Shown here: positions 1 through 42,212 of the stretch, piece by piece
How positions within the stretch are numbered: the first letter of the stretch is position 1
Layout of the letters: the number at the start of each line of letters is the position of its first letter
Origin: Candidatus Gottesmanbacteria bacterium
GTDB taxonomy: Bacteria > Patescibacteriota > Microgenomatia > JAMCYU01
Assembly (NCBI GenBank): GCA_043801155.1
Contig: JAZDMI010000028.1
Coordinates: 35,389 to 99,388, forward strand
Direction: 5' to 3'
Length of the DNA stretch: 64,000 bases
Notes under the pieces: generated by a model
The model's input: only the letters and a program-made list of their open reading frames with translations
What the model was told of the DNA's origin: nothing
Databases searched by the model: none
Position numbers and translations under genes: made by a program

Positions 1-627
1 GACGATAATAACTGTCAAGCCTATTTCTTGAGCCAACCGGGAAGCAATCGGATCGAAAGGCGCTGAAAGATTGGGACTCCATTTGTTGCCGACTATCTGG
101 CGATACTCATTCCAGTTTATTTTTTTAATCGGCCTGGCATTAGAATGTTTATGGGGATCTTTATCATAAACAGTCTCGATATTGGAAAGATTGATAAGTA
201 CCTTACTTTTATATCTTTGAGCCAGTAAAACCGCATCATAATCAGTTGACCAGCCCGGCTTCCAGCCGGCACCGATAACCACTGGCTGCGGTCCAAGCTT
301 ATATTCACGATCGTAATGAGTTACAAGCCGGGAGTTTGCAATATCTTTGAAAATTGTTCTTAGAAGATGAGCGTTCAAACGGGTGGCATGAATAGACAAC
401 CAGTCAAGTTCCACGGGCGGTATTTGCTTACCCAAAACAGTATCGGCGGCATCAGCATAATGTCTTGAGGTTCTTCCTCCCCCGCAAACAATAAAAAACC
501 GCTTGCCAGCGGTTATTTGTTTTCTTATGAATTCATTAAATCTCTTTAAGAATTCAGTATTAATCCCTCCGTTAGGGACAATTAATGAGCCGCCCAAAGA
601 CAAAATGACCGGTTCATCTTTACTCAT
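1..627 (-). CDS. pyrH: UMP kinase, archaeal/eukaryal type, amino-acid-kinase fold. Start ATG at 627; the C-terminus runs off the window edge.
   Basis: Own translation of the minus strand reads MSKDEPVILSLGGSLIVP...IVCGGGRTSRHYADAA...VVIGAGWKPGWSTDYDAVLLAQ. These match the glycine-rich motifs of the amino-acid-kinase family. The GGGRTSR pattern favours UMP kinase over isopentenyl phosphate kinase. The frame stays open to position 1. Confidence 0.7.
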   Translation of the reverse strand, partial: MSKDEPVILSLGGSLIVPNGGINTEFLKRFNEFIRKQITAGKRFFIVCGGGRTSRHYADAADTVLGKQIPPVELDWLSIHATRLNAHLLRTIFKDIANSRLVTHYDREYKLGPQPVVIGAGWKPGWSTDYDAVLLAQRYKSKVLINLSNIETVYDKDPHKHSNARPIKKINWNEYRQIVGNKWSPNLSAPFDPIASRLAQEIGLTVIIV

Positions 628-761: not shown

Positions 762-995
762 ATGAGAGAGAGAAATATGACACCAGCAAAATTGGAAAGA
801 AGAATACCTAAACCATATGAACCGCTAGAGAATCAACCGGGAAAAACAGGTGATCTTTCCGGAAGACCAGATATTACTCTTAGTCAAGCAAAATTTAATA
901 TTGATGCAGAACATAGACTGCATATGGCTGATTTGGATGCGCGTGGAGAAACGAGTGATGGCGATAACGGTGAAGACACAGCAAATCATAGTTAA
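762..995 (+). CDS. hypothetical small acidic protein (77 aa)
   Basis: ORF from the six-frame track, sitting in the intergenic gap between divergent genes. No recognisable motif and a weak RBS. Confidence 0.3.
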   Translation: MRERNMTPAKLERRIPKPYEPLENQPGKTGDLSGRPDITLSQAKFNIDAEHRLHMADLDARGETSDGDNGEDTANHS

Positions 996-1070
996 CCCAC
1001 TTTACTTGTAAATCCTCTAGTTTTTTACTATAATCCCTTACACGAAAATAATTTTTGCCTGTCCTTCTAT

Positions 1071-3152
1071 ATGAATAAGGGCTTTCCTGGAGAATATGAA
1101 TTACCGCATAATTCCGAACGAAATAGTACCGGAGAGTATATTTTTAGACTCGATAATTATATTAGTAAAGCTCCAAGAATTATAGGTCTTCAAGAATTAC
1201 AAAAAGTCCAGCTTAAAGTCCCCGATCCTATTTTTATCATTGGTCATCAAGCATTTGAACGTTATAAAAAAAGCGGTTTAACAGGCCAATTATATAAAGA
1301 AGTTTTAAGTGCCTTTAGCCTAATTCGACAGGCCGATCCTAACCGAGGTTGCCATATTGGCCGAGGTTTTTTTATTCCGGGGATTGATAATCCTCCTGGT
1401 TTAAGAACATCAACTATCACCAACCCAGATATTTTTGTCGATAAAATTAAGGATTTTTATGAATTTGTACGTCAAAAAGGATACGATATTCCGGGCGCAG
1501 ATATTGCTCTTATAATTCATCCCTTTATAAATGCCGGGGATCCCTTAATGATTAAGGATCCTCCTCTTGAATTCCCCGGAGGGGTCATTTACTCTCCAAC
1601 TGATGGTAAAATAGAAATCCATTCAACCTTTGGGCCAGATGAATCATATCAAGGATTTCCCAAAGATACATACACAGTTAATCTGTTTGGTCAAAGAATT
1701 GAAATTACCAAACAAATTAGTCGAAAAAAAAGGACTCTGATTCCATCAGCTAAAGATCCCCTAGCCTACGATGAAATTGATATCCCCAAAGAATTTCAAT
1801 CAAGACAAGCCTTGCCTGACGAACAAATTCTTGAATTGGCAACAGCTTATTTAAAAGTATCTAATCATTATGGTCCTCGTCGAATGGAATTCTTAACTCA
1901 ACCGGATGGAATATATTTTAGAGAATGTCAGCCATTTAATATGAAAGCTAAAGATTTAATTCATCTTTCTTCAAAATCAGTTGAGGCTGAGGTTTTAGTT
2001 ATTAGAACAGCGTCTGATATTTCAAAAATTGATGCAAACACTAAACTCGTTCATTTACCCGAGGACCTTTTTCAACATCGACAAATTGGTATTTTTGCTG
2101 CTTGTGCTGCGACTATTCATCAATTAGCTCATGATTCGATAGTTCTTCCCCACGGTGATATTGTTACATCGCATATGCTCAGAAATTTTGCTGATCTTGG
2201 TATTACGGTTGTTTTTATTGGTAACAATCATCTTGAAAATGGTGAACGAATAAGGGTGTATCGAACTGATGGTAGAGTCGAATGGGAAAGAATTGAATCA
2301 ATTAATAAGCTATTCCTCTCTTTAAACGATAAAAAATTAGAGAATAGAATTGTCGGATCTAAGGCCTTAAATCTTTATTTATTAGCTGAAGCCGGATTGA
2401 TTACACCTCGAGGATATTGTTTAACTGCCGATGCCTTTGATAAATATATTTATAAGTTTAATTTAACATCAGCTATTGAAAAATTGGAAGGGTTAGAAGG
2501 AAAAAAGTTGAGTGTAGCTTTAAAACGGATTCGCGATAAAATCACTGGCGGAAAAATTAATCATAAGGATAAGGAATATATATTAAATGCTCTTAATGGT
2601 TTAAAGGTTAATAAATATTCAGTTCGTTCTTCGGCTAATGTTGAAGACCAAGAAGTGTCTTTCGCCGGACAATTCAGTAGCACCATTGGTATTCCCCAAG
2701 AACAGGTAATTTATGCAATTAAGCAAAGCTGGGCTTCAGTTTTTAATGAAGGATCAATACTTTATGCTCGGGGACTAAGAATTAGTCCATTAATGATTAA
2801 AATGGGTGTATTAACTCATGAAACTATTGAAGGAGAAAAAGCCGGTGTTATTTTTACCCGTCATCCGGAAACGGGCAATTTCGTTGTTTCCATATCTGAT
2901 AAAGCAGAAAATATTGTAGAAGGTCAAGCTTCACAATTTCAGCAAATAGAAATTGACAGAAAGACACGAATGATTTTGAAGCATCAATTACATACAAATA
3001 ACCGACAGCCAATTATGAATCAAGATGAAATACAGGAGCTATTTTCTATTGGTATGCTTATTGAACAAATATTTGGCAGGCCTCAAGACATTGAATGGGT
3101 AATTAATAAACAAACTGGCAAATTGGTCTGTCTTCAATCACGACCAGTTTAA
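1071..3152 (+). CDS. Predicted PEP-utilising-family dikinase or phosphotransferase with a permuted domain order: unknown N-terminal domain, then phosphohistidine swivel domain, then C-terminal PPDK_N ATP-grasp domain.
   Basis: Central motif GDIVTSHMLRNFADLGITVVFIGNN resembles the PEP-utilisers mobile-domain consensus GG.TSHAAIIARELGIPAVVG. C-terminal region SKALNLYLLAEAGLITPRGY...YSVRSSANVEDQEVSFAGQFSS resembles the PPDK_N nucleotide-binding domain of PEP synthase and rifampin phosphotransferase. Confidence 0.6.
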   Translation: MNKGFPGEYELPHNSERNSTGEYIFRLDNYISKAPRIIGLQELQKVQLKVPDPIFIIGHQAFERYKKSGLTGQLYKEVLSAFSLIRQADPNRGCHIGRGFFIPGIDNPPGLRTSTITNPDIFVDKIKDFYEFVRQKGYDIPGADIALIIHPFINAGDPLMIKDPPLEFPGGVIYSPTDGKIEIHSTFGPDESYQGFPKDTYTVNLFGQRIEITKQISRKKRTLIPSAKDPLAYDEIDIPKEFQSRQALPDEQILELATAYLKVSNHYGPRRMEFLTQPDGIYFRECQPFNMKAKDLIHLSSKSVEAEVLVIRTASDISKIDANTKLVHLPEDLFQHRQIGIFAACAATIHQLAHDSIVLPHGDIVTSHMLRNFADLGITVVFIGNNHLENGERIRVYRTDGRVEWERIESINKLFLSLNDKKLENRIVGSKALNLYLLAEAGLITPRGYCLTADAFDKYIYKFNLTSAIEKLEGLEGKKLSVALKRIRDKITGGKINHKDKEYILNALNGLKVNKYSVRSSANVEDQEVSFAGQFSSTIGIPQEQVIYAIKQSWASVFNEGSILYARGLRISPLMIKMGVLTHETIEGEKAGVIFTRHPETGNFVVSISDKAENIVEGQASQFQQIEIDRKTRMILKHQLHTNNRQPIMNQDEIQELFSIGMLIEQIFGRPQDIEWVINKQTGKLVCLQSRPV

Positions 3153-3159
3153 CTATTTT

Positions 3160-3210
3160 GGCAGGCGGGCCTGCCCGCAAAAGCCTGCGCTTTAGCGCTG
3201 GCAGGCGGGA
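3160..3210. repeat. GC-rich palindromic hairpin element overlapping the mutM stop codon. It contains the direct repeat GGCAGGCGGG twice and is related to the insert in the tRNA D-loop at 17246-17285.
   Basis: Inverted repeats GCCTGCGC-TTTA-GCGCTGGCAGGC. It aligns with 17246-17285 at about 26 of 36 positions (CCyGCAAAA..GCTTTAGC..GGCrGG). Confidence 0.45.
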
Positions 3211-4064
3211 CAATAAAATGTACCTCTTCCTCCAATGGTTATCCGTCTAATTATTCCGCCGTCATTTCGTAGACATTTCTCCCTTTCTCTTTGATAGACT
3301 TTAAAATGATTTTGATATTTTCCCGGCTCTGCTTCAACATTAATAAAGGCTTCGTCTCCACCGGTTGATCCCCCATATCTTAATCCCTCGTTGAGTACTT
3401 TTATTATTCCCTCCCTTAATTTCTTAATTTCTAAATTACCTAATTCCTTGGCTGGTTTATCCGGTCTAATCTTGGCTTCCCAAAGGGCATCGTTGGCATA
3501 GATATTCCCAACTCCGGCAATCTTTTCCTGATCCATCAAAACTAACTTTATCGACTTTGAAGTTTTACTAAAAATTTTCTGTAAATATTCTACGGTAAAC
3601 TCTTTGTCAAACGGTTCCGGCCCCAAATTCTGCAATTCTTTCGCTGTTCTTAATTCGCTATTCTTAATTATTTTTATCCATCCAAATTGCCTTGAATCAT
3701 TAAAAAACAGTCGTGATCCATTATCAAAGTAAAATATAATGTGTGTACTTTTAGCCGGTAATATATTCCCTCCCCCAAACGGTATCGGTGTGTTCAGTGT
3801 TACGTGTCCAGTGTTATGTTGATTTTCTACGAAGATCAACTGTCCTGTCATTTTTAAATGTATCAGTATATTTTCCCTATTATCCAGTTCAATTATGGTT
3901 ACTTTTCCTTTTCGTTTAACGTCTAATATTTCTGCTCCCTCAACGTCTTGAGGATTTCCTTTAAATTGTTTAGACAATAAAACCTCGATCTTTTTAATCG
4001 TTAATCCTTTGATTTTAGAAACGAGACCTCTTCTTATAGTTTCAACCTCTGGTAGTTCTGGCAT
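3192..4064 (-). CDS. mutM: formamidopyrimidine-DNA glycosylase (Fpg/MutM)
   Basis: N-terminus MPELPEVETIRRGL carries the catalytic Pro2 and Glu3. C-terminal zinc finger reads CPACQR. Confidence 0.9.
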   Translation of the reverse strand: MPELPEVETIRRGLVSKIKGLTIKKIEVLLSKQFKGNPQDVEGAEILDVKRKGKVTIIELDNRENILIHLKMTGQLIFVENQHNTGHVTLNTPIPFGGGNILPAKSTHIIFYFDNGSRLFFNDSRQFGWIKIIKNSELRTAKELQNLGPEPFDKEFTVEYLQKIFSKTSKSIKLVLMDQEKIAGVGNIYANDALWEAKIRPDKPAKELGNLEIKKLREGIIKVLNEGLRYGGSTGGDEAFINVEAEPGKYQNHFKVYQREREKCLRNDGGIIRRITIGGRGTFYCPACQR

Positions 4065-14380: not shown

Positions 14381-15247
14381 ATGGCAACTCAAGCACTTGA
14401 TTTAATATCTACTAAACAGAAATTTGTTGAATACCTTCAGGGTCAACGCCGGGCCCAAGCTACTATTTTAGCATATCGAAAAGACATCGACCAGCTCGTT
14501 AGCTTCCTAACAGATATGGGTAAGCAGAATATTGATCAAATTGAGAAGATCGATTTGGAAAGCTTTCTCTCCAAGCTCGGGAAAGATGGTTATACGCCAA
14601 AATCACTTTCACGAAAGCTAAATTCGATTAAGACTTTTTATCGCTTTTTAAAATCATCAGGCTTAACTCAATTTGACCAGGCATCCGATATATCCCATCC
14701 TAAATATGAAATTAAACCGCCGAGAATATTGTCAAAAATGGAATATCGGGCTCTGCGGGATGCCTGCCGGGATGATATCAGAATTTCGGCCATTGTTGAG
14801 TTATTCTTACAAACTGGTTTACGAATTGGCGAGCTAGCTAGTTTACATCTTGAAGATATTAATAATAGTGAAATAACAATTAAGCCTTTTGAGTCACATG
14901 AAGGCCGAAATGTACCAATGAATAAGGCGGCCAAGGCAGCATTAGACCGATATCTTGAGGTTAGACCAAAAACCAAAGATTCTTCAATCTTTATTACTAA
15001 AACCGGGCGTCCACTACTTATACGAAATATCAGAACGGCAATTGACCGTTATTTTAAATTGGCTGGCATTGAGAAGGCTTGCGTTAATGATCTTCGGCAT
15101 ACATTTATTGCTCAACATTTAATGTCCGGCACGCCGCTAACGATTATTTCCAAACTCGCCGGCCACAAAAGGCTATCAACCACGGAAAAATATTTGGATT
15201 TAGTTAAGGATAAAGTCGAGGAAAACGTTAAGCTGGAAGAATTATAA
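14381..15247 (+). CDS. tyrosine site-specific recombinase, XerC/XerD-like
   Basis: N-terminal SAM-like domain. Catalytic residues are R in LRIGELASL, H-x-x-R in LRHTFIAQHL, and H..Y in GHKRLSTTEKYL. Confidence 0.85.
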   Translation: MATQALDLISTKQKFVEYLQGQRRAQATILAYRKDIDQLVSFLTDMGKQNIDQIEKIDLESFLSKLGKDGYTPKSLSRKLNSIKTFYRFLKSSGLTQFDQASDISHPKYEIKPPRILSKMEYRALRDACRDDIRISAIVELFLQTGLRIGELASLHLEDINNSEITIKPFESHEGRNVPMNKAAKAALDRYLEVRPKTKDSSIFITKTGRPLLIRNIRTAIDRYFKLAGIEKACVNDLRHTFIAQHLMSGTPLTIISKLAGHKRLSTTEKYLDLVKDKVEENVKLEEL

Positions 15248-17317: not shown

Positions 17318-19669
17318 TCATAGCCTGGCTCTTTGGGCAATTTCCGCTTCAACGAGTTCTCGGGGTTTTCCGTATTTCAAGGAAGACAGTCTTTTTATGG
17401 CCTCGGCAACTTTTTGATTAGCAGCTTTTCTCTCGGCAGCTATGTCACGGGTCATATCAACTGAAAAAGGAGGAACCGTTTCCATATTGACAATCGTACG
17501 AATAAAGGCATTATAACGGTCAACATTGATAAGATCCGCTTCAGAAAAGACCGGTTGAAACTCATGCTGGATGAAGTTGGCATCAGTAACTCCGACCCTA
17601 AAAGCAACCAGGGTACCAACGTTGCCAAAAACCGCGTTTTTAACTTCCTCTTCCATCTGACCAATAAACTGATTGGCAACGGTAATCGATAAATGATATT
17701 TTCTAGCTTCAGAAAGCATGGTGGCAAAATCAGGCGTAGCAAAATTTTGAAACTCATCAACATACAAAAAGAAGTCGCGTCGTTTCTCTTCAGCTACGTC
17801 AGTTCGCGACATGGCGGCCATTAAAATCTTCGGAACAATGATTGTTCCCAAAAAGCTGGTGTTTTCTTCTCCGATTTTGCCTTTGGCCAAATTGATCAAG
17901 ATTATTTTGCCCTCGTCCATGGCTTTTCTGAAATCAAAAGCTGTTTGCGATTGGCCGATAATGTTTCTGATAAGCTTATTGGTAACGAATCGGCCAAACT
18001 TGGAAACAATATAATCTAGTACTTCTGATTTATGGAAATCGGCTGTCTGAGCAATCTGATCCGTCCAATAACGGCGAACCATCGGATCAGTAACTTTCGG
18101 TAATAATTCCTGGACAAATGAGGAATCGGTCAAGGCCCGCACCACCTCAACAAAGGTGCTTCCCGGCTCTGCCATAACTGTCAAGATGGCATTTCTGATG
18201 GCATGTTCAAATCTTGGTCCGATGATACCGGTTTTATAAGGATCATAAAGCTTGTACATCAAACCAACAATTGAAGTTGTCACCATATGTTGTTGCTGCT
18301 CGGTATAAGCCTCAATCATATTAAGACCCATGGGTCGATCGGTATTTGAAGGATCAAAATAGATAACGTCTTCTGCCCTTTCCGGTGGAATCATGGGCAG
18401 GATTTTATCAATGGTATCGTGGGGATCAATAAAACAAATTCCCTCACCGTTTCTGATATCCTGCAATATCATTGAACTTAAAAGCTCTGATTTGCCGACA
18501 CCGGTTTTACCAATAACATAAACATGGCGGCTGCGATCCTCTTTGCCAATATAGATCGGTCTTTTAATCCCCCGATAAACGCTGTTACCTAAAAATAGGC
18601 CTGCGGTAGCAATTTGTTGGGGTGCCGGTGCCCGTTTGGCATTAAGCCAGAAAATATGAGGAGTTTCTACCTGTTTATTGGGAAAATGAAAAATCGTGGC
18701 CAACTCTTCACTATTTAAAACTGAGGTTTTGGCAAAAAACGGCGGATTAAATAATGGAAGATAACGATAAATGAAATCAACCATGAATAGTCTTTTAAAA
18801 ACAAGCTTGGCCTTTTTAAAACCATTTAGATCAGAGGAAAATTGTTCAAAGGCACCTACCAGATTTTGTAAATGAGCCTTGGCGGATTCTTCTGTATTTG
18901 AAGAAACAACAATTCTGATCGAGGTCTGAAAACCCGGCTTGCTGCATTTTTGATCAACCATTTCTAAAACCTTAGGGTCAACCGTATACTTAGCCTTTTC
19001 CGGATCGGATTCTCTCCTCTTAACTTTACCGATATAACCGCGGCCGGTGTCCCGCCATTTATTTTTCGCCGGAGAAATCATTATTTGGATAACTGCTCCT
19101 TCTCCCTCCCCCATTTTAGCCAAACCAGAAGTAATTAAAGATAAGGGGTCGGTTGGCAGGTCTTTATAGATTTTTATAGGGAAATAGTTAATATTTTTTA
19201 GTTTTAAAGAGGCAAAAGCGACTTTGCCATTCTCCGAGAAAATATTATATTCATCAATTTCTTTAATTTCGGCTCCGGGATAAGCACCATTGATTTGCTT
19301 TTCCACCAGGTCTTTATAATTTTTATGACAGTAAACATAAAAACGGATATCCTCTTTTTTACCGACGATTTCAAAAGAGACTTGTTCTTCAGTTTTTAAA
19401 AATGAGAAAAAACCGGATTTTTTTAGGGAATAAAGGCTGCTGGCCATCTGCTCGGCAGCATCAATCTTAATCTCATTATCCCGAGGAAGAGCTACTTGTA
19501 AAAGCACAGAATTTAAAGATTTTTCTTCACGATGGCGATATTTCCACAGTAGAAAAATATAATAGACTACCAAGATTAATCCGGCCAAAGCTAGAATAGC
19601 CACGGTCATACTTAGGATAAAGACTTCGGCTCGATAAATTAAATCACTAAACAGTGCGCTTGGATCCAT
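17318..19669 (-). CDS. Membrane-anchored P-loop ATPase of the FtsK/HerA/TraG-TraD (type IV coupling protein-like) superfamily.
   Basis: N-terminal transmembrane segment. Walker A HVYVIGKTGVGKSELL, Walker B FFLYVDEFQNF, and an ARKYHLSITVANQ motif typical of TraD/VirD4/DUF87-type ATPases. Confidence 0.55.
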   Translation of the reverse strand: MDPSALFSDLIYRAEVFILSMTVAILALAGLILVVYYIFLLWKYRHREEKSLNSVLLQVALPRDNEIKIDAAEQMASSLYSLKKSGFFSFLKTEEQVSFEIVGKKEDIRFYVYCHKNYKDLVEKQINGAYPGAEIKEIDEYNIFSENGKVAFASLKLKNINYFPIKIYKDLPTDPLSLITSGLAKMGEGEGAVIQIMISPAKNKWRDTGRGYIGKVKRRESDPEKAKYTVDPKVLEMVDQKCSKPGFQTSIRIVVSSNTEESAKAHLQNLVGAFEQFSSDLNGFKKAKLVFKRLFMVDFIYRYLPLFNPPFFAKTSVLNSEELATIFHFPNKQVETPHIFWLNAKRAPAPQQIATAGLFLGNSVYRGIKRPIYIGKEDRSRHVYVIGKTGVGKSELLSSMILQDIRNGEGICFIDPHDTIDKILPMIPPERAEDVIYFDPSNTDRPMGLNMIEAYTEQQQHMVTTSIVGLMYKLYDPYKTGIIGPRFEHAIRNAILTVMAEPGSTFVEVVRALTDSSFVQELLPKVTDPMVRRYWTDQIAQTADFHKSEVLDYIVSKFGRFVTNKLIRNIIGQSQTAFDFRKAMDEGKIILINLAKGKIGEENTSFLGTIIVPKILMAAMSRTDVAEEKRRDFFLYVDEFQNFATPDFATMLSEARKYHLSITVANQFIGQMEEEVKNAVFGNVGTLVAFRVGVTDANFIQHEFQPVFSEADLINVDRYNAFIRTIVNMETVPPFSVDMTRDIAAERKAANQKVAEAIKRLSSLKYGKPRELVEAEIAQRARL

Positions 19670-21676: not shown

Positions 21677-23011
21677 TCAAGTCCCTTTTGCCAGCCAAAA
21701 TTTTAAAGCAATTAAAATCAAAATCCCTCCAGGAATTATTAACCATATTTTTTTAGAATTTGACTTTTGATTTTCTTCTACTTGATTCTTTTCCTTCGTT
21801 TGACTACTTACAGTTGCTTCTCCTAGAACTTGGGGGGTTGGACTAGGATAAGTATAAATAATTTGTGGTGATGGACTAGGCACCGATGACGACGTCGGTG
21901 TTGATGATGATGAAGGACTCGGCGACGGATCAGCAGACGGAGTTGGGGTCGGTGTAGGACTGGGTGAGGGACTTGGCGTGGAAGTCGGACTGGGGGTTGG
22001 AGTTGGGGTCGGCGTAGGACTGGGTGAGGGTTCGACTGACGGAGTGGGCGATGGACTTGCAGACGGTGTAAAAATATTCAATATCCAACTTTTACCTAAA
22101 AGGGCAATAATAGATTGAGCCGTTGTGGTTGTGTCTTCGCCGCTCCAGGTTAAAAAACCTCCATCTGTCTGTTGATTAGTAATAAGCCAGTTTCTGGCAT
22201 TAATGGCTTGGTCAGAATTTCCCAGTCCTAAAACATTTAAAGCCATCAGTCCCCAAGAAGTCGTATCGCTATCGCTAGTCCCCGACCAGCCGGGAAATCC
22301 ACCATCAGCATTTTGATGAACTAAAAGATAATCTCTAGCTAGCAAGATGGCATTGTCCAAACCATCGTTAGTTAAATCATTGTCTTTAGCTGCTTGTAAT
22401 GATTGTATGGCCGCGGCTGTCATGTCAATGGTCGTTCCGCAATAAGCACAAGTCGTATCCGGCGACCAGCTAAAACCACCATCAGATGCCTGATGAGTAA
22501 TAATAAAATTAAGAGTGTCTTTCTTAACTTGTAAATCAGAACTAACCCCACAACTAATTAAGGCTAAAAGTCCGAAGAAATCTTCATTAAGCGAAGTTAT
22601 ATCGCCAATTTGCTGGTTATTGTAAAAACTTTCTAATTTTTGTACGTAATTTACCCCATTAAAATTTGTCGGGTCATCACCTATTGCCACAATGGCCAAA
22701 ATTCTTGATTCCCAATCAGTGGCCGAACTATTATCCCCAGGTTTATCGTTTAAAAGAAAATCCCGTAAAGAAGATGAGTTAGTCGAAATTTTTACATCTG
22801 CCGGATTGATATTATTAGCCATAAAAGCGATGGCTGACCATTGGGAAGGACTGGAAAAACCATTAGTAATTTTTCCGGTTGCATCCTGCTTAGATTTTAA
22901 AAAGTTAAGACCATTATCAATAACTGCGTCTGCCAGGGCAATTCTAACAGTTAAAAAAAATAAAATAGCAATTAATAGAACAGTTTTTTTCATGAGCCTA
23001 AATATTTCCAT
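21677..23011 (-). CDS. Cell-surface protein. Signal peptide, then alpha/alpha-toroid repeats (prenyltransferase/squalene-cyclase-like QxxDGGF/W), a Pro/Ser/Thr-rich linker, and a C-terminal transmembrane anchor.
   Basis: Repeats [19 protein letters not shown] and [10 protein letters not shown]. Linker [31 protein letters not shown].... C-terminal [24 protein letters not shown]. Confidence 0.6.
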
Positions 23012-25898: not shown

Positions 25899-28040
25899 TT
25901 ATTGTAGGGGCAGACTTTCTTTTAGTTGTAATTGTTTATTGTATGTTTTCCGATCTTTAAATTCTGTTTGTTTCCCGGCATTCCATTGGACAATTGGCCG
26001 AAGATACCCAACCACTCTGGACCATACTTCGCATGTTTTTCCGCATTCTGGACAATTTTTTTGTTCACCTTTAAGATATCCATGCGTCGGACATACGCTA
26101 AACGTTGGTGTTAACGTATAATACGGTAAATGATATGTCTTAGCTATTTTTTTAACTAATGCTTTAACTGCCTCTTTGTCAACCATGCTTTCCCCTAAAA
26201 ATCCGTGTAACACCGTTCCGCCGGTATATTTAGTTTGCAATTCGTCCTGCAAATCAAGTGCCTGGAAAATGTCATCGGTAAAATTAACCGGCAGATGGGT
26301 TGAATTAGTATAATAAGGTTCAGCGTGATCGGTTTTAATTTCTTCTTCATTCGCACAAATTATTTCCGGATAATTTTTCTTATCCAGTTTGGCTAAATTG
26401 TAAGCGGTCCCCTCAGCTGGCGTGGCCTCAAGATTAAACATTTGATCAGTTTCCTTTTGATAGATTAAGATTTTCGTTCGCATAAAATCCATAACGTCAA
26501 TAGCAAAGGCTTTCCCCTCCTCTTCGCCAATACTCTTACCTATAAAATTAACTAAGGATTCATTCATGCCAATAAGGCCAATAGTATTGAAATGATTTTT
26601 CCAATATTCACCAAAGCGGTCTTTAATGGCGGCTAAATAAACTTTAGAATACGGATAAAGCCCTTCTTCAGTAAACTTTTCCACAATGGCTCGCTTAAGC
26701 AGTAATGCTTCTTTAGCCATATCCATAAGATGTGATAATTTTTCAAAATAATCCTTTTTAGTTTTGGATAAAAATCCCAGCCGGGGAAGGTTTATCGTTA
26801 CTACTCCGAGACTACCGGTTAACGGATTGGAGCCAAACAGCCCACCCCCCCGCTTAACTAACTCCCGATTGTCTAAACGCAACCGACAACACATACTTCG
26901 GGCATCTTCGGGCTTCATGTCCGAATTAATAAAATTAGAAAAGTATGGAATCCCGTATTTCCGCGTCATTTCCCAAATACCATCAAAGTCCGGATTATCC
27001 CAAGTGAAATCCTTGGTGATATTATAAGTGGGAATCGGGAAGGTAAATACCCTGCCTTTAGCATCTCCCTCAAGCATGACCTCGGCGTAGGCTTTATTAA
27101 AAAGACTGACTTCTTTTTGAAAATCGGTATAACTTTTATTTTGTGGTTTACCACCAATCATCACCGGCTCTTTTTCTAAAAATTTAGGAACGACCAGATC
27201 TAAAGTTATATTGGTAAAGGGAGTCTGAAAACCAACCCGGGTCGGAACGTTCATATTGAAAACAAATTCTTGTAGGGCTTGTTTAATTTCTGGATACGAT
27301 AATTTATCATAGGCAATAAAAGGAGCCAGCAAAGTATCGAAATTAGAAACAGCTACGGCTCCGGCAATTTCTCCCTGCAGAGTATAAAAGAAGTTAACTA
27401 ACTGACCCAATGCTGTGCGAAAATGTTTTGGCGGCCGGCATTCAATCTTTCCCGGTACTCCGCCGAACCCGCGGAAGAGCAGATCCCGAAGATCCCAACC
27501 ACAACAATAAGCAGCCAACATTTGTAGGTTATGAATATGGAGATCACCGTTAATATGAGCTTGTCTAATTTGCGGAGGATAGATTTTATTTAACCAGTAA
27601 TTGGCGGAAATTTCCGAGGCAACATGATTATTTAAACCCTGAAGAGAATAGGCCATGTTACTATTTTCTCTAACGCGCCAATCAAGTTTTGAAAGATAAT
27701 TACCAACTAATTCATCAGAATCAATTAATGAGTATATATCGCGGGTTCGTCGTTTTAATTCACGGTACAAAATATATGCCCGCGCTACATTATAATGGCC
27801 ATGATGCATTAATACTTCTTCGACAATATTTTGAATTTCTTCAACTTGAGGAATAAGCTTACCATCATAACGGATCTCAAGCTTTTCAATTACTTTGTCG
27901 GCTAAATATTTAACTCTTTCGCCGTCTTTTTCACCAATAGCTTGGAAGGCTTTTTCTAAAGCCTTAATAATCCTTTGAGGATTAAATCTAACCAACCTGC
28001 CGTTACGTTTTTGAATTTTAGTCACGGTTATTTTTATCAT
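25899..28040 (-). CDS. nrdD: anaerobic (class III) ribonucleoside-triphosphate reductase
   Basis: N-terminal ATP-cone, a C-terminal zinc ribbon CPTHG..CPECG, and the glycyl-radical region SRVVGYLRP. Confidence 0.9.
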   Translation of the reverse strand: MIKITVTKIQKRNGRLVRFNPQRIIKALEKAFQAIGEKDGERVKYLADKVIEKLEIRYDGKLIPQVEEIQNIVEEVLMHHGHYNVARAYILYRELKRRTRDIYSLIDSDELVGNYLSKLDWRVRENSNMAYSLQGLNNHVASEISANYWLNKIYPPQIRQAHINGDLHIHNLQMLAAYCCGWDLRDLLFRGFGGVPGKIECRPPKHFRTALGQLVNFFYTLQGEIAGAVAVSNFDTLLAPFIAYDKLSYPEIKQALQEFVFNMNVPTRVGFQTPFTNITLDLVVPKFLEKEPVMIGGKPQNKSYTDFQKEVSLFNKAYAEVMLEGDAKGRVFTFPIPTYNITKDFTWDNPDFDGIWEMTRKYGIPYFSNFINSDMKPEDARSMCCRLRLDNRELVKRGGGLFGSNPLTGSLGVVTINLPRLGFLSKTKKDYFEKLSHLMDMAKEALLLKRAIVEKFTEEGLYPYSKVYLAAIKDRFGEYWKNHFNTIGLIGMNESLVNFIGKSIGEEEGKAFAIDVMDFMRTKILIYQKETDQMFNLEATPAEGTAYNLAKLDKKNYPEIICANEEEIKTDHAEPYYTNSTHLPVNFTDDIFQALDLQDELQTKYTGGTVLHGFLGESMVDKEAVKALVKKIAKTYHLPYYTLTPTFSVCPTHGYLKGEQKNCPECGKTCEVWSRVVGYLRPIVQWNAGKQTEFKDRKTYNKQLQLKESLPLQ

Positions 28041-37489: not shown

Positions 37490-39811
37490 TTGCCAATGAA
37501 AAAGAAAAGAACTAAGAAATCTTTGCTTCGCTCACGAAAGTCCATTAAGTTTCTTACTTGGTGGCATAGTTTATCGACCAGAAAAAAAGACATTATTGGT
37601 TTAGGTCTTATCTTTTCCTTTTTCTTATTTGTCTTTTATGTTTTTATTTTAAAGGATCTTCCCCTACCCACATCATTAGCTAGTCGGGATATTCTCCAAA
37701 CAACGCAAATCTTAGACCGAAACGGCAAATTACTTTTTAATATTTATACTGACCAGGATCGAACTATTGTAAATTTAAGTGAAGTTCCTTTACAACTCCG
37801 ACAGGCAACAATTGCTATTGAGGATAAGGATTTTTACAAACATGGCAGTATTGCTTTTGAAGGGATTATTAGGGCGCTCCGGGAAATTGTTATTCATCGT
37901 CAACTCCAGGGAGGTTCAACCATTACCCAACAATTAGTTAAGTCCGCCCTTTTAACACCGGAACGAACGATTCAGCGAAAAATCAAAGAGGCAATTTTAT
38001 CTTTTTTTGTCGATAAGATTTATACCAAAGACCAAATACTAGAAATGTATTTGAATCAAGTTTCTTATGGTGGAACAGCTTGGGGTGTTGAAGCAGCTTC
38101 AAATAAGTATTTTGGTAAACTAGTTAAGGATTTAAATCTAGCTGAATGTTCGCTCCTGGCTGGTCTACCAGCTGCTCCCACATACTATTCTCCTTATGGG
38201 GCTCACCCGGAATTAGCCAAGCAAAGACAAGCAGAGGTACTGCGCCGAATGGCTGAAGATGGTTACATTTCTTCCTCTGATATTCAACAAGCAAAAAACT
38301 ATAAATTAACTTATAAACCACAGGCCGGAATTAAAGCTCCGCATTTTGTTATGTATGTTAAAGATCAGTTGGTTAAAAAATACGGCGAAAAGTTAGTTGA
38401 ACAAGGAGGTTTAAAGGTAATTACCACCCTTGATTTAGATATCCAAGAATTTGCCCAAAATACGGTCGCTACTGAAGTTGCCAGTTTAAAAGAACTTAAG
38501 GTCGGCAACGGGGCGGCGTTAGTTACCCGCCCGCCAACCGGAGAGATTTTGGCAATGGTAGGCTCTAAAGATTATTTCGGAGCGGAAGCGGAGAAAGTAG
38601 CGTCTAGCGCCAGCGACGCGTCTTTTGATGAAACCTTCCAGGGTAATTTTAATGTCACTATTGCTCATCGTCAACCAGGTTCATCGATCAAACCAATTAA
38701 TTATGCAGTCGGTTTAGCCAGCGGTAAAATTACACCAGCTTCCCTTATTTTAGACATTCCAACTTGTTTTTCTGTTTTGGGCCAATCTCTTTATTGCCCG
38801 CAAAATTATGATGGACAGTTTCATGGAGCGGTACAAATGCGTTTTGCTTTAGGTAATTCCTATAATATCCCGGCGGTTAAAACACTGGCTCTAAACGGTG
38901 TTGATCAAATGATTGCTACCGCGTCGGCTATGGGTATTACAACTTTCAAGGACCCATCACGCTATGGTTTGTCACTCACTTTAGGCGGTGGTGAAGTAAT
39001 GATGACTGATATGGCAACTGCTTTTGGCGTTTTTGCTAATACCGGTATTAAAAAAGACTTAGTATCTATCCTAAAAGTTGAAGATAATCAAAAAAAGGTG
39101 CTTGAAGAATATCAAAATCCAAATTGGCAAAAGGACCTTAAAGATCTCTCCTACCCTTCGGTTTTACAAATTGACGGGCCAAGAGTATTATCAACTGAAG
39201 TCAGTTTTCTAATTTCTCATATACTCCTTGACCAAAATGCCAGATCGGCAGCCTTTGGACAAAGTTATTTACCTATTTCCGGTAAAGCTGTTTCTGTTAA
39301 AACAGGTACCACTGATGATAAGCGTGATAACTGGACGATTGGTTTTACTCCCAATTTCTTAGTCGCTACCTGGGTTGGCAATAACAATAACCAACCGATG
39401 AATCAATGGTTAACCTCGGGCGTTACCGGTGCAGCTCCCATGTGGAATAAGATTATGACCTATATTTTGAAAAATGAACCTGATTTATGGCCCAAAAAAC
39501 CTGAAGGCGTCGTCGGAGCGACTATTTGTTCTCTATCCGGTAAATTGCCTGGTGATTCAAATTGTCCTACCCGTTTTGAATATTTTATCAATGGAACTGT
39601 ACCGCAAGAAACAGAAAATTTAAAAAGACAAATTTTAGTAGAAAAAGGTACTGACCGGCAGGCAATTTTTATGCAAAACCCTACCCAACCGCCGATGCCA
39701 ACTGATAATTTTGAAATGAAAGAAAAACAGGTACTCTCTGACTGGTTTACTCCAGAATATTGTCTCGATTGTCCCCACGGCGGCGACAGACCAGTGATTG
39801 TCAAACCATAA
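37490..39811 (+). CDS. penicillin-binding protein 1A (bifunctional transglycosylase and transpeptidase)
   Basis: GT51 motifs EDKDFYKHGS and QGGSTITQQLVKS, and the transpeptidase SSIKP (SxxK) and KTGTT motifs. Confidence 0.9.
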   Translation: MPMKKKRTKKSLLRSRKSIKFLTWWHSLSTRKKDIIGLGLIFSFFLFVFYVFILKDLPLPTSLASRDILQTTQILDRNGKLLFNIYTDQDRTIVNLSEVPLQLRQATIAIEDKDFYKHGSIAFEGIIRALREIVIHRQLQGGSTITQQLVKSALLTPERTIQRKIKEAILSFFVDKIYTKDQILEMYLNQVSYGGTAWGVEAASNKYFGKLVKDLNLAECSLLAGLPAAPTYYSPYGAHPELAKQRQAEVLRRMAEDGYISSSDIQQAKNYKLTYKPQAGIKAPHFVMYVKDQLVKKYGEKLVEQGGLKVITTLDLDIQEFAQNTVATEVASLKELKVGNGAALVTRPPTGEILAMVGSKDYFGAEAEKVASSASDASFDETFQGNFNVTIAHRQPGSSIKPINYAVGLASGKITPASLILDIPTCFSVLGQSLYCPQNYDGQFHGAVQMRFALGNSYNIPAVKTLALNGVDQMIATASAMGITTFKDPSRYGLSLTLGGGEVMMTDMATAFGVFANTGIKKDLVSILKVEDNQKKVLEEYQNPNWQKDLKDLSYPSVLQIDGPRVLSTEVSFLISHILLDQNARSAAFGQSYLPISGKAVSVKTGTTDDKRDNWTIGFTPNFLVATWVGNNNNQPMNQWLTSGVTGAAPMWNKIMTYILKNEPDLWPKKPEGVVGATICSLSGKLPGDSNCPTRFEYFINGTVPQETENLKRQILVEKGTDRQAIFMQNPTQPPMPTDNFEMKEKQVLSDWFTPEYCLDCPHGGDRPVIVKP

Positions 39812-39887: not shown

Positions 39888-42212
39888 ATGCCCAGAAAGA
39901 CGAAAATGAAGCGTCAATTACAAGATAAACCTCTTGATTTAATACTCGATAGCATCTTTATTCCTCTTATTTTTATTGCCGTTATCTTAATCAAAATTGG
40001 CAATATCCCGAGATTAATTTTAAGAATTTTGTTTCAATTTTTATTATGGTTTGGCAACTTAAATTTAAAAATATTTACCAAAATAGCTGCCTCGGTAGTT
40101 TATCTATTTCATCATCTTAAAATAAAACAGCCCCATATAAAATTGCCTTCTTTACCAAAGATTAAATTACCAAAATATACAATTCAAAAACCAACTTTAC
40201 CATCAATTATTATCCCCCCATTACCGTCTGTTTATCTTCCCGAAATCCCCTTCCCGACATTATCTCTTAAGATACGCTGGTTTATTATTGGTGTTTTTTT
40301 TACGTTAATTTTTATTTTTTTACCTTTCCAAATTTGGTCTTGGTTATCGCAACTACCCAATCCCCAGTTGTTAACTAATAGAGAGATTCCGCTTACCAGT
40401 AAAATTTTTGACCGTCATGGTACCCTACTTTATGAAATTTATACTGACCAAAATCGTACACCGGTTACTCTCGCTAATATTCCTCAAGATTTAATCAAGG
40501 CAACCATTGCCATTGAAGATAAGCAATTTTATAATCACCCGGGATTTTCTTTACGGGGTATTCTGCGGGCCGCTAAAGAAACTATTGTTAATAAAAGACT
40601 TCAGGGTGGATCAACTATTACCCAACAACTTGTAAGAAGTGCCCTCTTAACTCCTCAACCAACCTTAGAAAGAAAAATCAAAGAAATACTTTTGTCATTT
40701 TGGGCAGAAAGACTTTTTACTAAAGAGCAAATTCTCGAAATGTATTTTAATCAAGTTCCTTACGGTGGCACCAGCTGGGGAATTGAGGCCACTACAGAAA
40801 CATATTTTGGTAAATCGGTTAAGAATCTTTCCTTAGCCGAAGCGTCATTTTTGGCAGCACTACCGGCTTCTCCCAGTGTTTATTCTCCCTTTGGCACTCA
40901 TCCGGAACAGGGTTTGGCTCGGCAAAAAGAGGTTTTAAGGCTTATGCGGGAGCAAGGCTATATATCCAATGAGCAGGAAATTATGGCTCTAAACCAAAAA
41001 CTGGTTTTTCTCCCAGCTAAAACTAATATTAAGGCGCCGCATTTTGTTATGTATATCAAGGATCTATTGGAGAAAAAATATGGGACGCGAAAAGTCGCCC
41101 AGGGAGGTTTACAGGTTATTACCAGTTTAGACCTTTCAATCCAGGAAATGGCTCAAAAGATTGTTACTGATGAAATTACTAATTTGTCTTCGCTTAATGT
41201 TGGCGACGGAGCTGCCTTAATAACCGATCCAAAGTCCGGCCAAATTTTGGCTATGGTCGGCTCCAAAGATTATTTTGATCTTGATGCTGGCGGTAATGTT
41301 AATATAACTTTATCTCTTCAACAACCTGGTTCATCGATTAAGGTCGTTAACTATACCTTGGCCTTAGAAAAAGGCCTGACAGCAGCTAGTATATTAGATG
41401 ATTCACCAATAGCCTTTCAGGTGGCCAGCCAGCCAAATTATATCCCGGTTAATTATGACGGTAAATTCCATGGAAAAGTTACTTTACGGCAAGCATTGGC
41501 TAGTTCTTTTAATATTCCTGCCGTTAAAGTTTTGGCTAGTTTAGGGGTAGAAAATATGATTAATCAAGGACGGTTAATGGGCATTACTACCTGGCGGGAC
41601 ATTGACCGTTATGGTTTATCTTTAACCTTAGGCGGTGGTGATGTAACCATGCTGGATATGGCCAAGGTTTACGGAGTATTAGCTGATCAAGGAAAGAGAC
41701 AAGATATAACACCCATTTTAAAAATTACCGATTATAAAAATCAAATCTTAGAACAAGCATCACCCCAGGATGAGAATGCAGTCGTTAACCCGGGGGTGGC
41801 TTTTATCTTAGCTAATATCTTAAGCGATGATAACGCCAGGAGTGCTGCTTTTGGAACAAATTCACTCCTTAACATTCCCGGAAAATCCGTATCCGTTAAA
41901 ACCGGAACTAGTAATGACCTCCGTGATAATTGGGCGATTGGTTTTACACCATCATATGTGGTAACTACGTGGGTTGGTAATATCGATAACAGTCCGATGG
42001 GAAGGATTGCTTCGGGAATAACTGGAGCCACTCCAATCTGGCACAATATTATGGTTAATTTGCTAAAAGATAAGCCGAATGAACCAATATTGCCCCCAGA
42101 AAATGTTGTCAGAATTGATGCTTGTGGCCGAAGCGAATATTTCTTAAAAGGAACAGAAAAAAATATTAGTTGTGCACCACCACCTACTCCATCCCCCAGC
42201 CCGGTTCAATAA
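39888..42212 (+). CDS. penicillin-binding protein 1A paralog with an extended Pro-rich N-terminus
   Basis: EDKQFYNHPG, QGGSTITQQLVRS, SSIKV and KTGTS motifs. It lies in tandem with the preceding PBP1A gene. Confidence 0.9.
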   Translation: MPRKTKMKRQLQDKPLDLILDSIFIPLIFIAVILIKIGNIPRLILRILFQFLLWFGNLNLKIFTKIAASVVYLFHHLKIKQPHIKLPSLPKIKLPKYTIQKPTLPSIIIPPLPSVYLPEIPFPTLSLKIRWFIIGVFFTLIFIFLPFQIWSWLSQLPNPQLLTNREIPLTSKIFDRHGTLLYEIYTDQNRTPVTLANIPQDLIKATIAIEDKQFYNHPGFSLRGILRAAKETIVNKRLQGGSTITQQLVRSALLTPQPTLERKIKEILLSFWAERLFTKEQILEMYFNQVPYGGTSWGIEATTETYFGKSVKNLSLAEASFLAALPASPSVYSPFGTHPEQGLARQKEVLRLMREQGYISNEQEIMALNQKLVFLPAKTNIKAPHFVMYIKDLLEKKYGTRKVAQGGLQVITSLDLSIQEMAQKIVTDEITNLSSLNVGDGAALITDPKSGQILAMVGSKDYFDLDAGGNVNITLSLQQPGSSIKVVNYTLALEKGLTAASILDDSPIAFQVASQPNYIPVNYDGKFHGKVTLRQALASSFNIPAVKVLASLGVENMINQGRLMGITTWRDIDRYGLSLTLGGGDVTMLDMAKVYGVLADQGKRQDITPILKITDYKNQILEQASPQDENAVVNPGVAFILANILSDDNARSAAFGTNSLLNIPGKSVSVKTGTSNDLRDNWAIGFTPSYVVTTWVGNIDNSPMGRIASGITGATPIWHNIMVNLLKDKPNEPILPPENVVRIDACGRSEYFLKGTEKNISCAPPPTPSPSPVQ

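Follow-up and report, generated by a model that had tools for sequence, protein, structure and literature searches.

A dikinase-like protein of Candidatus Gottesmanbacteria with two ATP-grasp domains either side of a phosphohistidine swivel domain

What kind of phosphotransferase has its recognizable ATP-grasp domain behind, and not in front of, the histidine that it would charge? The question is raised by an open reading frame (ORF) in a 64,000-nucleotide stretch of DNA (hereafter "the window") from a metagenome-assembled genome (MAG) of Candidatus Gottesmanbacteria, a lineage of Candidate Phyla Radiation (CPR) bacteria (GenBank assembly GCA_043801155.1, contig JAZDMI010000028.1, positions 35,389 to 99,388). 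The ORF is genuine, as first supposed, and encodes 693 aa from ATG to stop; GDIVTSHMLRNFADLGITVV, which includes the putative carrier histidine H368, is the exact translation of nucleotides 2154-2213. The NCBI entry with the identical sequence, from a 107-kb contig of a Candidatus Gottesmanbacteria MAG, is named "PEP/pyruvate-binding domain-containing protein" (PEP, phosphoenolpyruvate). The original prediction described a permuted dikinase of the PEP-utilising family with an N-terminal domain of unknown fold, and suggested an antibiotic or another small molecule as a possible substrate. Here we argue that the domain order is not permuted, and that the N-terminal domain is a second, remodelled ATP-grasp that probably serves as the acceptor site of a phosphohistidine relay.

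Curated models of the known enzymes recognize the C-terminal third of the protein and nothing more. The best NCBIfam matches are to PEP synthase (PEPS) and rifampin phosphotransferase (RPH) models, and all are far below their cut-offs (TIGR01418 for PEPS, the best match, 140 bits against 740; NF041857 for RPH, 120 against 999; TIGR01828 for pyruvate phosphate dikinase, PPDK, 22.5 against 843). A Pfam scan of the whole protein likewise returned nothing besides the C-terminal PPDK_N domain, with no match to PF02896 (the PEP-utilizers_C TIM barrel) and no carbohydrate-binding module (CBM). That C-terminal ATP-grasp was found as predicted: PF01326 (PPDK_N) matches aa 427-692 with an E-value of 1.5e-54 and 186 bits (cut-off 27), the domain matches PEPS and RPH ATP-grasp structures by sequence at E 1e-20, and Foldseek places it on RPH 5hv3 at E 1.5e-18. 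It is PEPS/RPH-like as opposed to PPDK-like by its scores (140 bits on TIGR01418 versus 22 on TIGR01828), which would make it a domain of the water-dikinase type.

Conservation points the same way. Column counts were made over 39 members of the family, which share 21-39% identity with the query. K431 is present in 39 of 39, R519 in 38, D673 in 36 and E675, Q689 and R691 in 37 each, and S537 is also listed with the site residues kept in at least 36 of the 39. In an alignment to 5hv6, K431, R519, S537 and E675 line up with Lys22, Arg117, Thr136 and Glu297 of RPH-Lm, which place the ATP phosphates and Mg2+, as established by mutagenesis and structure (PMC4844700). Because the catalytic residues are fully conserved, we infer that H368 is charged from ATP at this domain (the C-grasp).

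The central swivel motif of the original prediction also holds up, by a route other than the one it had proposed: of the two Pfam models named beforehand, PF01326 was found, and the His domain was revealed by hhalign and profile alignment in place of PF00391 (PEP-utilizers). Aligned with hhalign, the middle regions of 57 family members match canonical His domains with 94% probability (E 1.5e-7, 89 columns), and T366-S367-H368 falls on the catalytic T-S-H. A profile of the N-terminal and His regions together runs in one continuous alignment with PEPS 8a8e through GGRTSHAAIVSRELG (GGRTSH). H368 is invariant in all 39 family members, as well as in three close homologues, and the His-2 position, T366, is Thr in 32 of the 39 and Ser in 4 more. 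A split relative (P0088, see below) scores 22.1 bits on PF00391, for which the cut-off is 23.1. The hidden Markov model of the middle domain by itself does not reach canonical PEPS proteins, so that hhalign is needed to see the relationship. With an ATP-grasp and a His domain both present, the protein is, as judged from these matches, a member of the PEP-utilising dikinase superfamily, in line with the phospho-relay enzyme without a TIM barrel that had been envisaged.

The region of about 300 aa before the His domain was correctly set apart in the original prediction; its "unknown fold" was an error. By whole-domain comparison this region (the N-grasp) is, at the profile level, a homologue of PPDK_N. 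Scanned alone, aa 1-299 match PF01326 with 34.4 bits, above the cut-off of 27, over the C-terminal lobe of the model. When the family's N-domain is compared by hhalign with its own C-domain, the probability is 97.4% (E 9.2e-12) over 226 columns that span the full domain. The profile of the N-terminal and His regions (positions 51-360) aligns in a single stretch to aa 123-462 of PEPS 8a8e (E 5.7e-21), and it also matches the RPH ATP-grasp 5hv6 at 9e-16. A TIM barrel in this position, which we also considered, is ruled out by the missing PF02896 and by the PPDK_N match of the isolated domain. The duplication is visible to profile methods only: the two halves of the protein give no match to each other by BLASTP, which is why it escaped both the first reading of the sequence and the annotators.

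Structure prediction agrees with this assignment. An AlphaFold2 model built on the 39-sequence alignment (pLDDT 90.8, pTM 0.69), which superseded one built on 3 sequences (pLDDT 68), shows strands and helices that follow one another in the same order in aa 24-288 and in aa 415-692. Searched against the PDB with Foldseek, the model retrieves the ATP-grasp enzymes RPH, HpeI, PEPS and PPDK at the top, followed by generic ATP-grasp enzymes; the ATP-grasp domains of succinyl-CoA synthetase (SCS) are among the weak matches.

How the two grasps differ is best seen residue by residue, using the hhalign register and the column counts over the 39 relatives to establish equivalences. Two of the six canonical catalytic positions are identical in the N-grasp (R98 and E273), two show conservative replacements (Lys to R36, Gln to E285), and two are changed, the Asp to R271 and the Arg equivalent to R691 to a variable residue at position 287 (Ala, Leu, Thr or Gln). 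The replacements are themselves strongly retained: R36 occurs in 34 members (with Lys in 3), R98 in 33, R271 in 38, and E273, E285 and K219 in all 39. G110 and G188 are also invariant, and D199, G170 and G171 nearly so. The adenine/hinge strand reads HPFI in the N-domain versus QEMI/HETI in the C-domain. The site thus appears remodelled, not decayed, one carboxylate and one guanidinium having in effect been swapped, and the two metal-type glutamates and the phosphate-binding arginines having stayed constant; because the replaced positions are near-invariant across such divergent members, we read it as a working site.

Since the N-grasp and His domain together are collinear with aa 123-462 of PEPS, the protein is, by alignment, not permuted, contrary to what had been thought: residues 1-412 follow the canonical PEPS order of ATP-grasp then His, and a second, canonical ATP-grasp appears to occupy the place that the TIM barrel has in PEPS and PPDK. 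On the same collinear match to 8a8e, we rejected permutation of a PEPS ancestor and prefer a second grasp gained by duplication or recruitment. In evolutionary terms, the N-grasp and His domain would be the N-terminal module of a PEP synthase, with the second grasp in place of the TIM barrel. There are also bridging proteins, several of the most distant, PEPS-like matches, in which a Pfam-positive PPDK_N is directly followed by a His region of this family's type.

Comparison with known systems helps to define what the protein is not. To our knowledge, every swivel-histidine dikinase characterised so far has one ATP-grasp, and its acceptor domain is not related to that grasp: PEPS and PPDK use a TIM barrel, and RPH, HpeH and glucan, water dikinase a helical domain. 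PEP synthase (PpsA; pyruvate, water dikinase; PDB 8a8e, 9dae, 2ols) shares with the window protein an ATP-grasp at the N terminus with the swivel His after it, the T-x-H catalytic motif, a grasp of the type found here at the C terminus and, presumably, the conversion of ATP to AMP, Pi and His~P; unlike PEPS, the window protein has no PEP-utilizers_C TIM barrel, its first grasp is remodelled, and a second, canonical grasp follows the His domain. With the barrel absent and the equivalog scores missed, it is neither a PEP synthase nor a PPDK, so far as its sequence tells. HpeHI, PpsAB (phenylphosphate synthase) and CreHI, together with their fused homologue RPH (PDB 9goj, 5hv1), have the same pairing of an [acceptor + swivel His] module with an [ATP-grasp] module, in split and in fused forms, and in the split systems the acceptor-His gene likewise comes first and the ATP-grasp gene second (PMC12167813). 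However, their acceptor domain is helical and RIF-binding-like, whereas that of the window family is a paralogous ATP-grasp, and they are found in the context of aromatic catabolism or resistance, in contrast to housekeeping and nucleotide genes in CPR bacteria. The protein is thus outside the RPH/HpeHI group, if a helical acceptor domain is what defines that group.

It is outside glucan, water dikinase (GWD) too. The linear order of acceptor, His domain and C-terminal ATP-binding domain is already known, from GWD1/PWD of plants and algae, where the last is a PPDK-type domain (PMC13553574), and from the HpeH-HpeI gene pair (PMC12167813). That order is all that the window protein has in common with GWD, which has two CBM45 modules, an all-helical central domain, a length of about 1,400 aa, a eukaryotic/plastidial setting and a polymer substrate. 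A search of the literature turned up no account of a PPDK_N-His-PPDK_N architecture, an absence that holds for the literature searched only. An acceptor domain that is a duplicated ATP-grasp with a rebuilt and conserved site would be a new rewiring of the modular dikinase machine.

The protein belongs to a family that is real, well conserved and rare. A word-indexed homology search gave two full-length relatives only; an exhaustive profile search of representative proteins with the N-grasp and His module returned 140 at E<=1e-3 and 73 at E<=1e-10, the most distant of which are canonical PEPS-like proteins. In all, the family comprises about 90 clusters at 50% identity, mostly Patescibacteria; where sources are named, they are MAGs of Gottesmanbacteria or of the "Patescibacteria group", and the members bear no annotation beyond "PEP/pyruvate-binding domain-containing protein" or "hypothetical". 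A locus search with the family alignment retrieved 4 genome and 3 metagenome loci, and found no viral loci.

Three arrangements occur. Fused proteins of 620-720 aa have the domain order of the window protein, natural split proteins of ~360-420 aa consist of the N-grasp and His domain only, and order-swapped fusions (P0040, P0103) have PPDK_N at aa ~20-300, followed by the N-grasp and His domain. At one locus (L005), a split paralogue adjoins the fused homologue P0002: a 370-aa gene for N-grasp and His (motif GSTTTGHTAIIFREAGH) is followed by a 288-aa PPDK_N gene, and the stop codon of the former overlaps the start codon of the latter by ATGA. Because split genes and fusions in both orders occur, we describe the family, from its gene structures, as a two-module dikinase, [acceptor-grasp + His] + [ATP-grasp], whose modules may be joined in either order or kept separate. 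Two further proteins, P0093 and P0119, are also order-swapped, with the canonical PPDK_N ahead of the N-grasp and His domain. The neighbours of the P0040 gene (L015) look archaeal (TrmB, ATPase_2/MCM winged-helix), and judging from them the family may reach DPANN-type archaea.

Taken together, the best explanation is a three-domain, ATP-dependent phosphohistidine relay in which the N-grasp would be the acceptor site, for an acceptor that may be nucleotide-like; we give this reading as a whole a probability of roughly 0.6. In such a relay the C-grasp would bind MgATP and (pyro)phosphorylate H368, with release of AMP (and Pi); the His domain would then swing over to the N-grasp, which would hold the acceptor and receive the phosphoryl group. 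The acceptor would be small, anionic, Mg-binding and nucleotide-like, for example a pyrimidine nucleoside mono- or diphosphate (NMP, NDP) or a related phosphorylated precursor. Its parts are not equally secure. That the domains form a relay of this kind is highly probable. Residue conservation is why the C-grasp is put forward as donor and the N-grasp as acceptor for an anionic, Mg-associated ligand, and the latter assignment is, in our judgment, probably correct. The identification of the acceptor as a nucleotide or nucleotide precursor is tentative, and is suggested by the chemistry of the N-site and by recurrent neighbours from nucleotide metabolism. The coordinates of the features discussed here and below are collected in Table 1.

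Table 1. Features of the dikinase gene, its surroundings in the window and selected loci of relatives (coordinates are those of the window unless a locus is given)
Feature	Coordinates	Strand	Basis or remark
Complete ORF, 693 aa, ATG to stop	1071..3152	+	two-ATP-grasp phosphohistidine-swivel dikinase-like protein
Divergent PPDK_N-type ATP-grasp, aa ~21-299, proposed acceptor domain	1131..1967	+	Pfam, hhalign, PEPS profile
N-grasp codon K219	1725-1727	+	column counts
N-grasp codon R271	1881-1883	+	column counts
N-grasp codon E273	1887-1889	+	column counts
N-grasp codon E285	1923-1925	+	column counts
Phosphohistidine swivel domain, PEP-utilizers-like, aa ~303-412, T366-S367-H368 motif	1977..2306	+	hhalign, profile alignment
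H368 codon, predicted phospho-carrier His	2172..2174	+	invariance, alignment to PEPS catalytic His
Canonical PPDK_N ATP-grasp, aa ~420-693, proposed ATP site	2328..3149	+	Pfam, structures, Foldseek, conservation
K431 codon	2361-2363	+	C-grasp site residue
Archaeal-type UMP kinase PyrH, divergent, truncated by window edge	1..627	-	TIGR02076, 154 bits; 209-aa fragment
Promoter-like TTGTAA-17-TATAAT	1006..1034	+	~37 nt upstream of ATG; weak
Fpg gene, convergent	3192-4064	opposite to dikinase gene
Split paralogue genes and following ORF	L005:758-2733 and L005:1-753	-	stop/start overlap ATGA
Overlapping operon: BtpA/SgcQ-family, RibA-like GTP cyclohydrolase II, 143-aa ORF, dikinase gene	L026:5915-10070	+

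The neighbourhood evidence is as follows. In the window, the dikinase gene stands alone on its strand, between the divergent pyrH and the convergent fpg. The subfamily of the window lies in a vertically inherited block (CarbKin, RecF-like, PyrH in some, the dikinase, Fpg in some, GT4, 5'3'Exo, FtsH, TrpRS). PyrH adjoins the dikinase gene in the window and at two other loci (L001, L024) and is one gene off at a third (L008). In other clades, which count as independent observations, a 5'-nucleotidase-like gene, pyrH and a split dikinase gene follow each other in the same direction (L017); PyrC precedes the dikinase, which is followed by PyrD, PyrK, a PyrE-like phosphoribosyltransferase (PRTase), PyrF and thymidylate kinase (Tmk) (L013); and PyrC and PyrE are close by (L016). 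A dihydroorotate-dehydrogenase-like TIM-barrel ORF begins 4 nt past the split pair of L005, on a weak match (NF005741, 43 bits). A purine-type PRTase gene is directly upstream at L014, the dikinase gene belongs to an overlapping operon with a RibA-like gene at L026, a weakly CMP-kinase-like gene is directly upstream and ribonucleotide reductase farther upstream at L023, and RdgB/Ham1 is two genes off at L011. In a manual tally, 15 of the 114 called neighbours over 11 non-redundant loci are nucleotide-metabolism genes (a raw count); such genes typically make up a few percent of a bacterial genome. We regard the link to nucleotide metabolism as suggestive.

Several observations weigh against the relay to a nucleotide-like acceptor. 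The PyrH adjacencies of the window's subfamily amount to one observation, because they belong to one inherited housekeeping block in which the dikinase gene has a strand to itself; the nucleotide-related neighbours are a mixed set (PyrH, pyr genes, a purine-type PRTase, a RibA-like protein, ribonucleotide reductase); CPR genomes have densely packed genes, a large share of them housekeeping; and the neighbourhoods of L015, L019, L021 and L022 show no nucleotide genes. As for the protein itself, Pfam called PF00391 neither on the whole sequence nor on the isolated middle region, and the roles of donor and acceptor are read from residue conservation alone.

Other explanations have to be set against these same data. 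Were the protein a small-molecule, xenobiotic or antibiotic phosphotransferase like RPH, HpeHI, PpsAB and CreHI, as the original prediction had it, its N-domain would bind an uncharged or aromatic molecule. The closest solved structures, by Foldseek and by sequence, are indeed the ATP-grasp domains of RPH and HpeI, and the two-module logic with split and fused variants is common to HpeHI and RPH (PMC12167813). However, an alpha/beta ATP-grasp takes the acceptor position in place of a helical RIF-binding-like domain, and its invariant Arg/Lys and two metal-type Glu suit an anionic, Mg-bound ligand, not a hydrophobic aromatic one; the gene is inherited vertically in a CPR housekeeping block, not found in catabolic or resistance clusters; and the His-2 residue is Thr, as in PEPS and PPDK, where the RPH/HpeH group has Met (PMC12167813). 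Acceptor-site chemistry and gene contexts thus both speak against a substrate of this kind, and we consider it improbable. Much the same standing is given to the idea that the N-grasp is non-catalytic (a scaffold, a dimerisation domain or an allosteric nucleotide sensor) and that the phosphoryl group of H368 goes to another protein, or to a substrate that another subunit binds, as from Enzyme I to HPr. Replacement of canonical catalytic residues (D to R, Q to E, loss of the Arg) and a score of just 34 bits on PPDK_N are what one might expect of a pseudo-enzyme; near-invariance of the replaced positions in 39 members is instead the signature of a working site, the N-grasp always accompanies the His domain in the split forms, like the acceptor domains of HpeH, and no partner gene conserved across the examined loci was seen.

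It is also conceivable, if unlikely, that both grasps bind nucleotides and that the enzyme transfers (pyro)phosphoryl groups reversibly from one nucleotide to another, for example in the reaction ATP + NMP <-> AMP + NTP (NTP, nucleoside triphosphate) via His~PP, or in an NDK-like exchange. This would be a sharper version of the relay proposed above, with each grasp performing the same half-reaction on a different nucleotide. Two homologous nucleotide-type domains do stand on either side of one carrier His, the N-site keeps the net charge and functional groups (D/Q/R in the C-grasp becoming R/E/A in the N-grasp), and independent clades have a pyrimidine NMP kinase gene next to the dikinase gene (PyrH, and the weakly Cmk-like protein). 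On the other hand, the difference in the hinge strand says nothing definite about the base, and the loss of the R691 equivalent may mean that the N-site no longer handles a gamma-phosphate. Succinyl-CoA synthetase, whose His~P transfers its phosphoryl group to an NDP seated in an ATP-grasp, counts as a precedent for a nucleotide acceptor. It is a mechanistic analogy only: there too a phosphohistidine alternates between two sites, and a nucleotide-binding ATP-grasp is one of them, although the carrier His is unrelated (on an alpha-subunit loop), a PEP-utilizers swivel domain is missing, and the grasp is of another subfamily. Least credible is a glucan-like polymer dikinase analogous to GWD, or a former of acyl or carbamoyl phosphate that uses two ATP-grasps in the manner of carbamoyl phosphate synthetase and feeds pyrimidine synthesis. 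For these one can cite the equal linear order of GWD (PMC13553574), the conserved GT4 glycosyltransferase gene nearby on the other strand, and the lack of visible CarAB or PyrB in the pyr cluster of L013. Yet the protein has neither a carbohydrate-binding module nor a helical central domain, the GT4 gene is part of the opposite-strand housekeeping block, PPDK_N-type grasps phosphorylate histidine and not carboxylates, and there is no glutaminase or aspartate transcarbamoylase partner at L013 or L016.

The most specific form of the relay that we would venture, and a speculative one, is a phosphohistidine-relay nucleotide kinase of CPR bacteria, in which the C-grasp would charge H368 and the N-grasp would (pyro)phosphorylate a pyrimidine NMP or NDP or a nucleotide precursor. 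If so, an NDK-like step, or the step from NMP to NTP, would proceed by a mechanism not known for it. In the literature searched, we found nothing relevant on a missing Ndk in CPR bacteria. The family is compact and rare, and is found mainly in ultra-small CPR bacteria. Little is understood of nucleotide metabolism in these organisms, and a nucleotide acceptor would mean a new phosphorylation route and a candidate for a gap in CPR metabolism. Should the acceptor not be a nucleotide, the family would still be a clean system in which to study the conversion of an ATP site into an acceptor site.

Around the dikinase gene itself, we asked whether an ORF of 77 aa at 762-995 (+) could be a partner gene, and decided against it: it has no Pfam match, is not conserved in syntenic loci, and is probably not a gene. 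The promoter-like match upstream of the dikinase gene belongs to a class of matches that is no commoner than in shuffled sequence. The PyrH of the window is of archaeal type in a CPR bacterium, with 154 bits on TIGR02076 versus 42 bits on the bacterial PyrH model, and its orthologues at L001 and L017 exceed the TIGR02076 cut-off. The RibA-like GTP cyclohydrolase II at L026 has an N-terminal extension of ~80 aa.

Some observations on loci of relatives are worth recording. The contig CAYMYO010000016.1 (L009) is labelled "uncultured Gammaproteobacteria", but its gene order (dikinase-GT4-Exo-FtsH-TrpRS) is that of the Patescibacteria loci, which makes an error of binning or classification probable. 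The orthologue of a different Gottesmanbacteria MAG (L010:7938-10110, +) is frameshifted near residue 235, either as a pseudogene or through an assembly error, and a second, partial paralogue lies at the start of the contig (L010:1-740, -). A canonical protein of 827 aa with PPDK_N and PEP-utilizers domains (RPH/PEPS-like; L017:2294-4777, -) is encoded on the same contig as split form P0029, so that the family coexists with classical dikinases.

Elsewhere in the window, a tyrosine recombinase (Phage_integrase; 14381-15247, +) and a TraG/VirD4-like coupling protein (DUF87/TraG-D_C/T4SS-DNA_transf; 17318-19669, -) are encoded less than 5 kb apart and may belong to an integrated mobile element. 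The gene at 25899-28040 (-) is for NrdD, an anaerobic ribonucleoside-triphosphate reductase that has an ATP-cone (PF13597, E 4e-199); it follows that the organism reduces NTPs and needs a supply of them. A 444-aa protein (21677-23011, -) has weak matches to prenyltransferase/squalene-hopene-cyclase alpha-alpha-toroid repeats, unusual for CPR bacteria, and two class A penicillin-binding proteins (Transgly + Transpeptidase) of ~773 aa each are encoded in tandem at 37490-39811 (+) and 39888-42212 (+).

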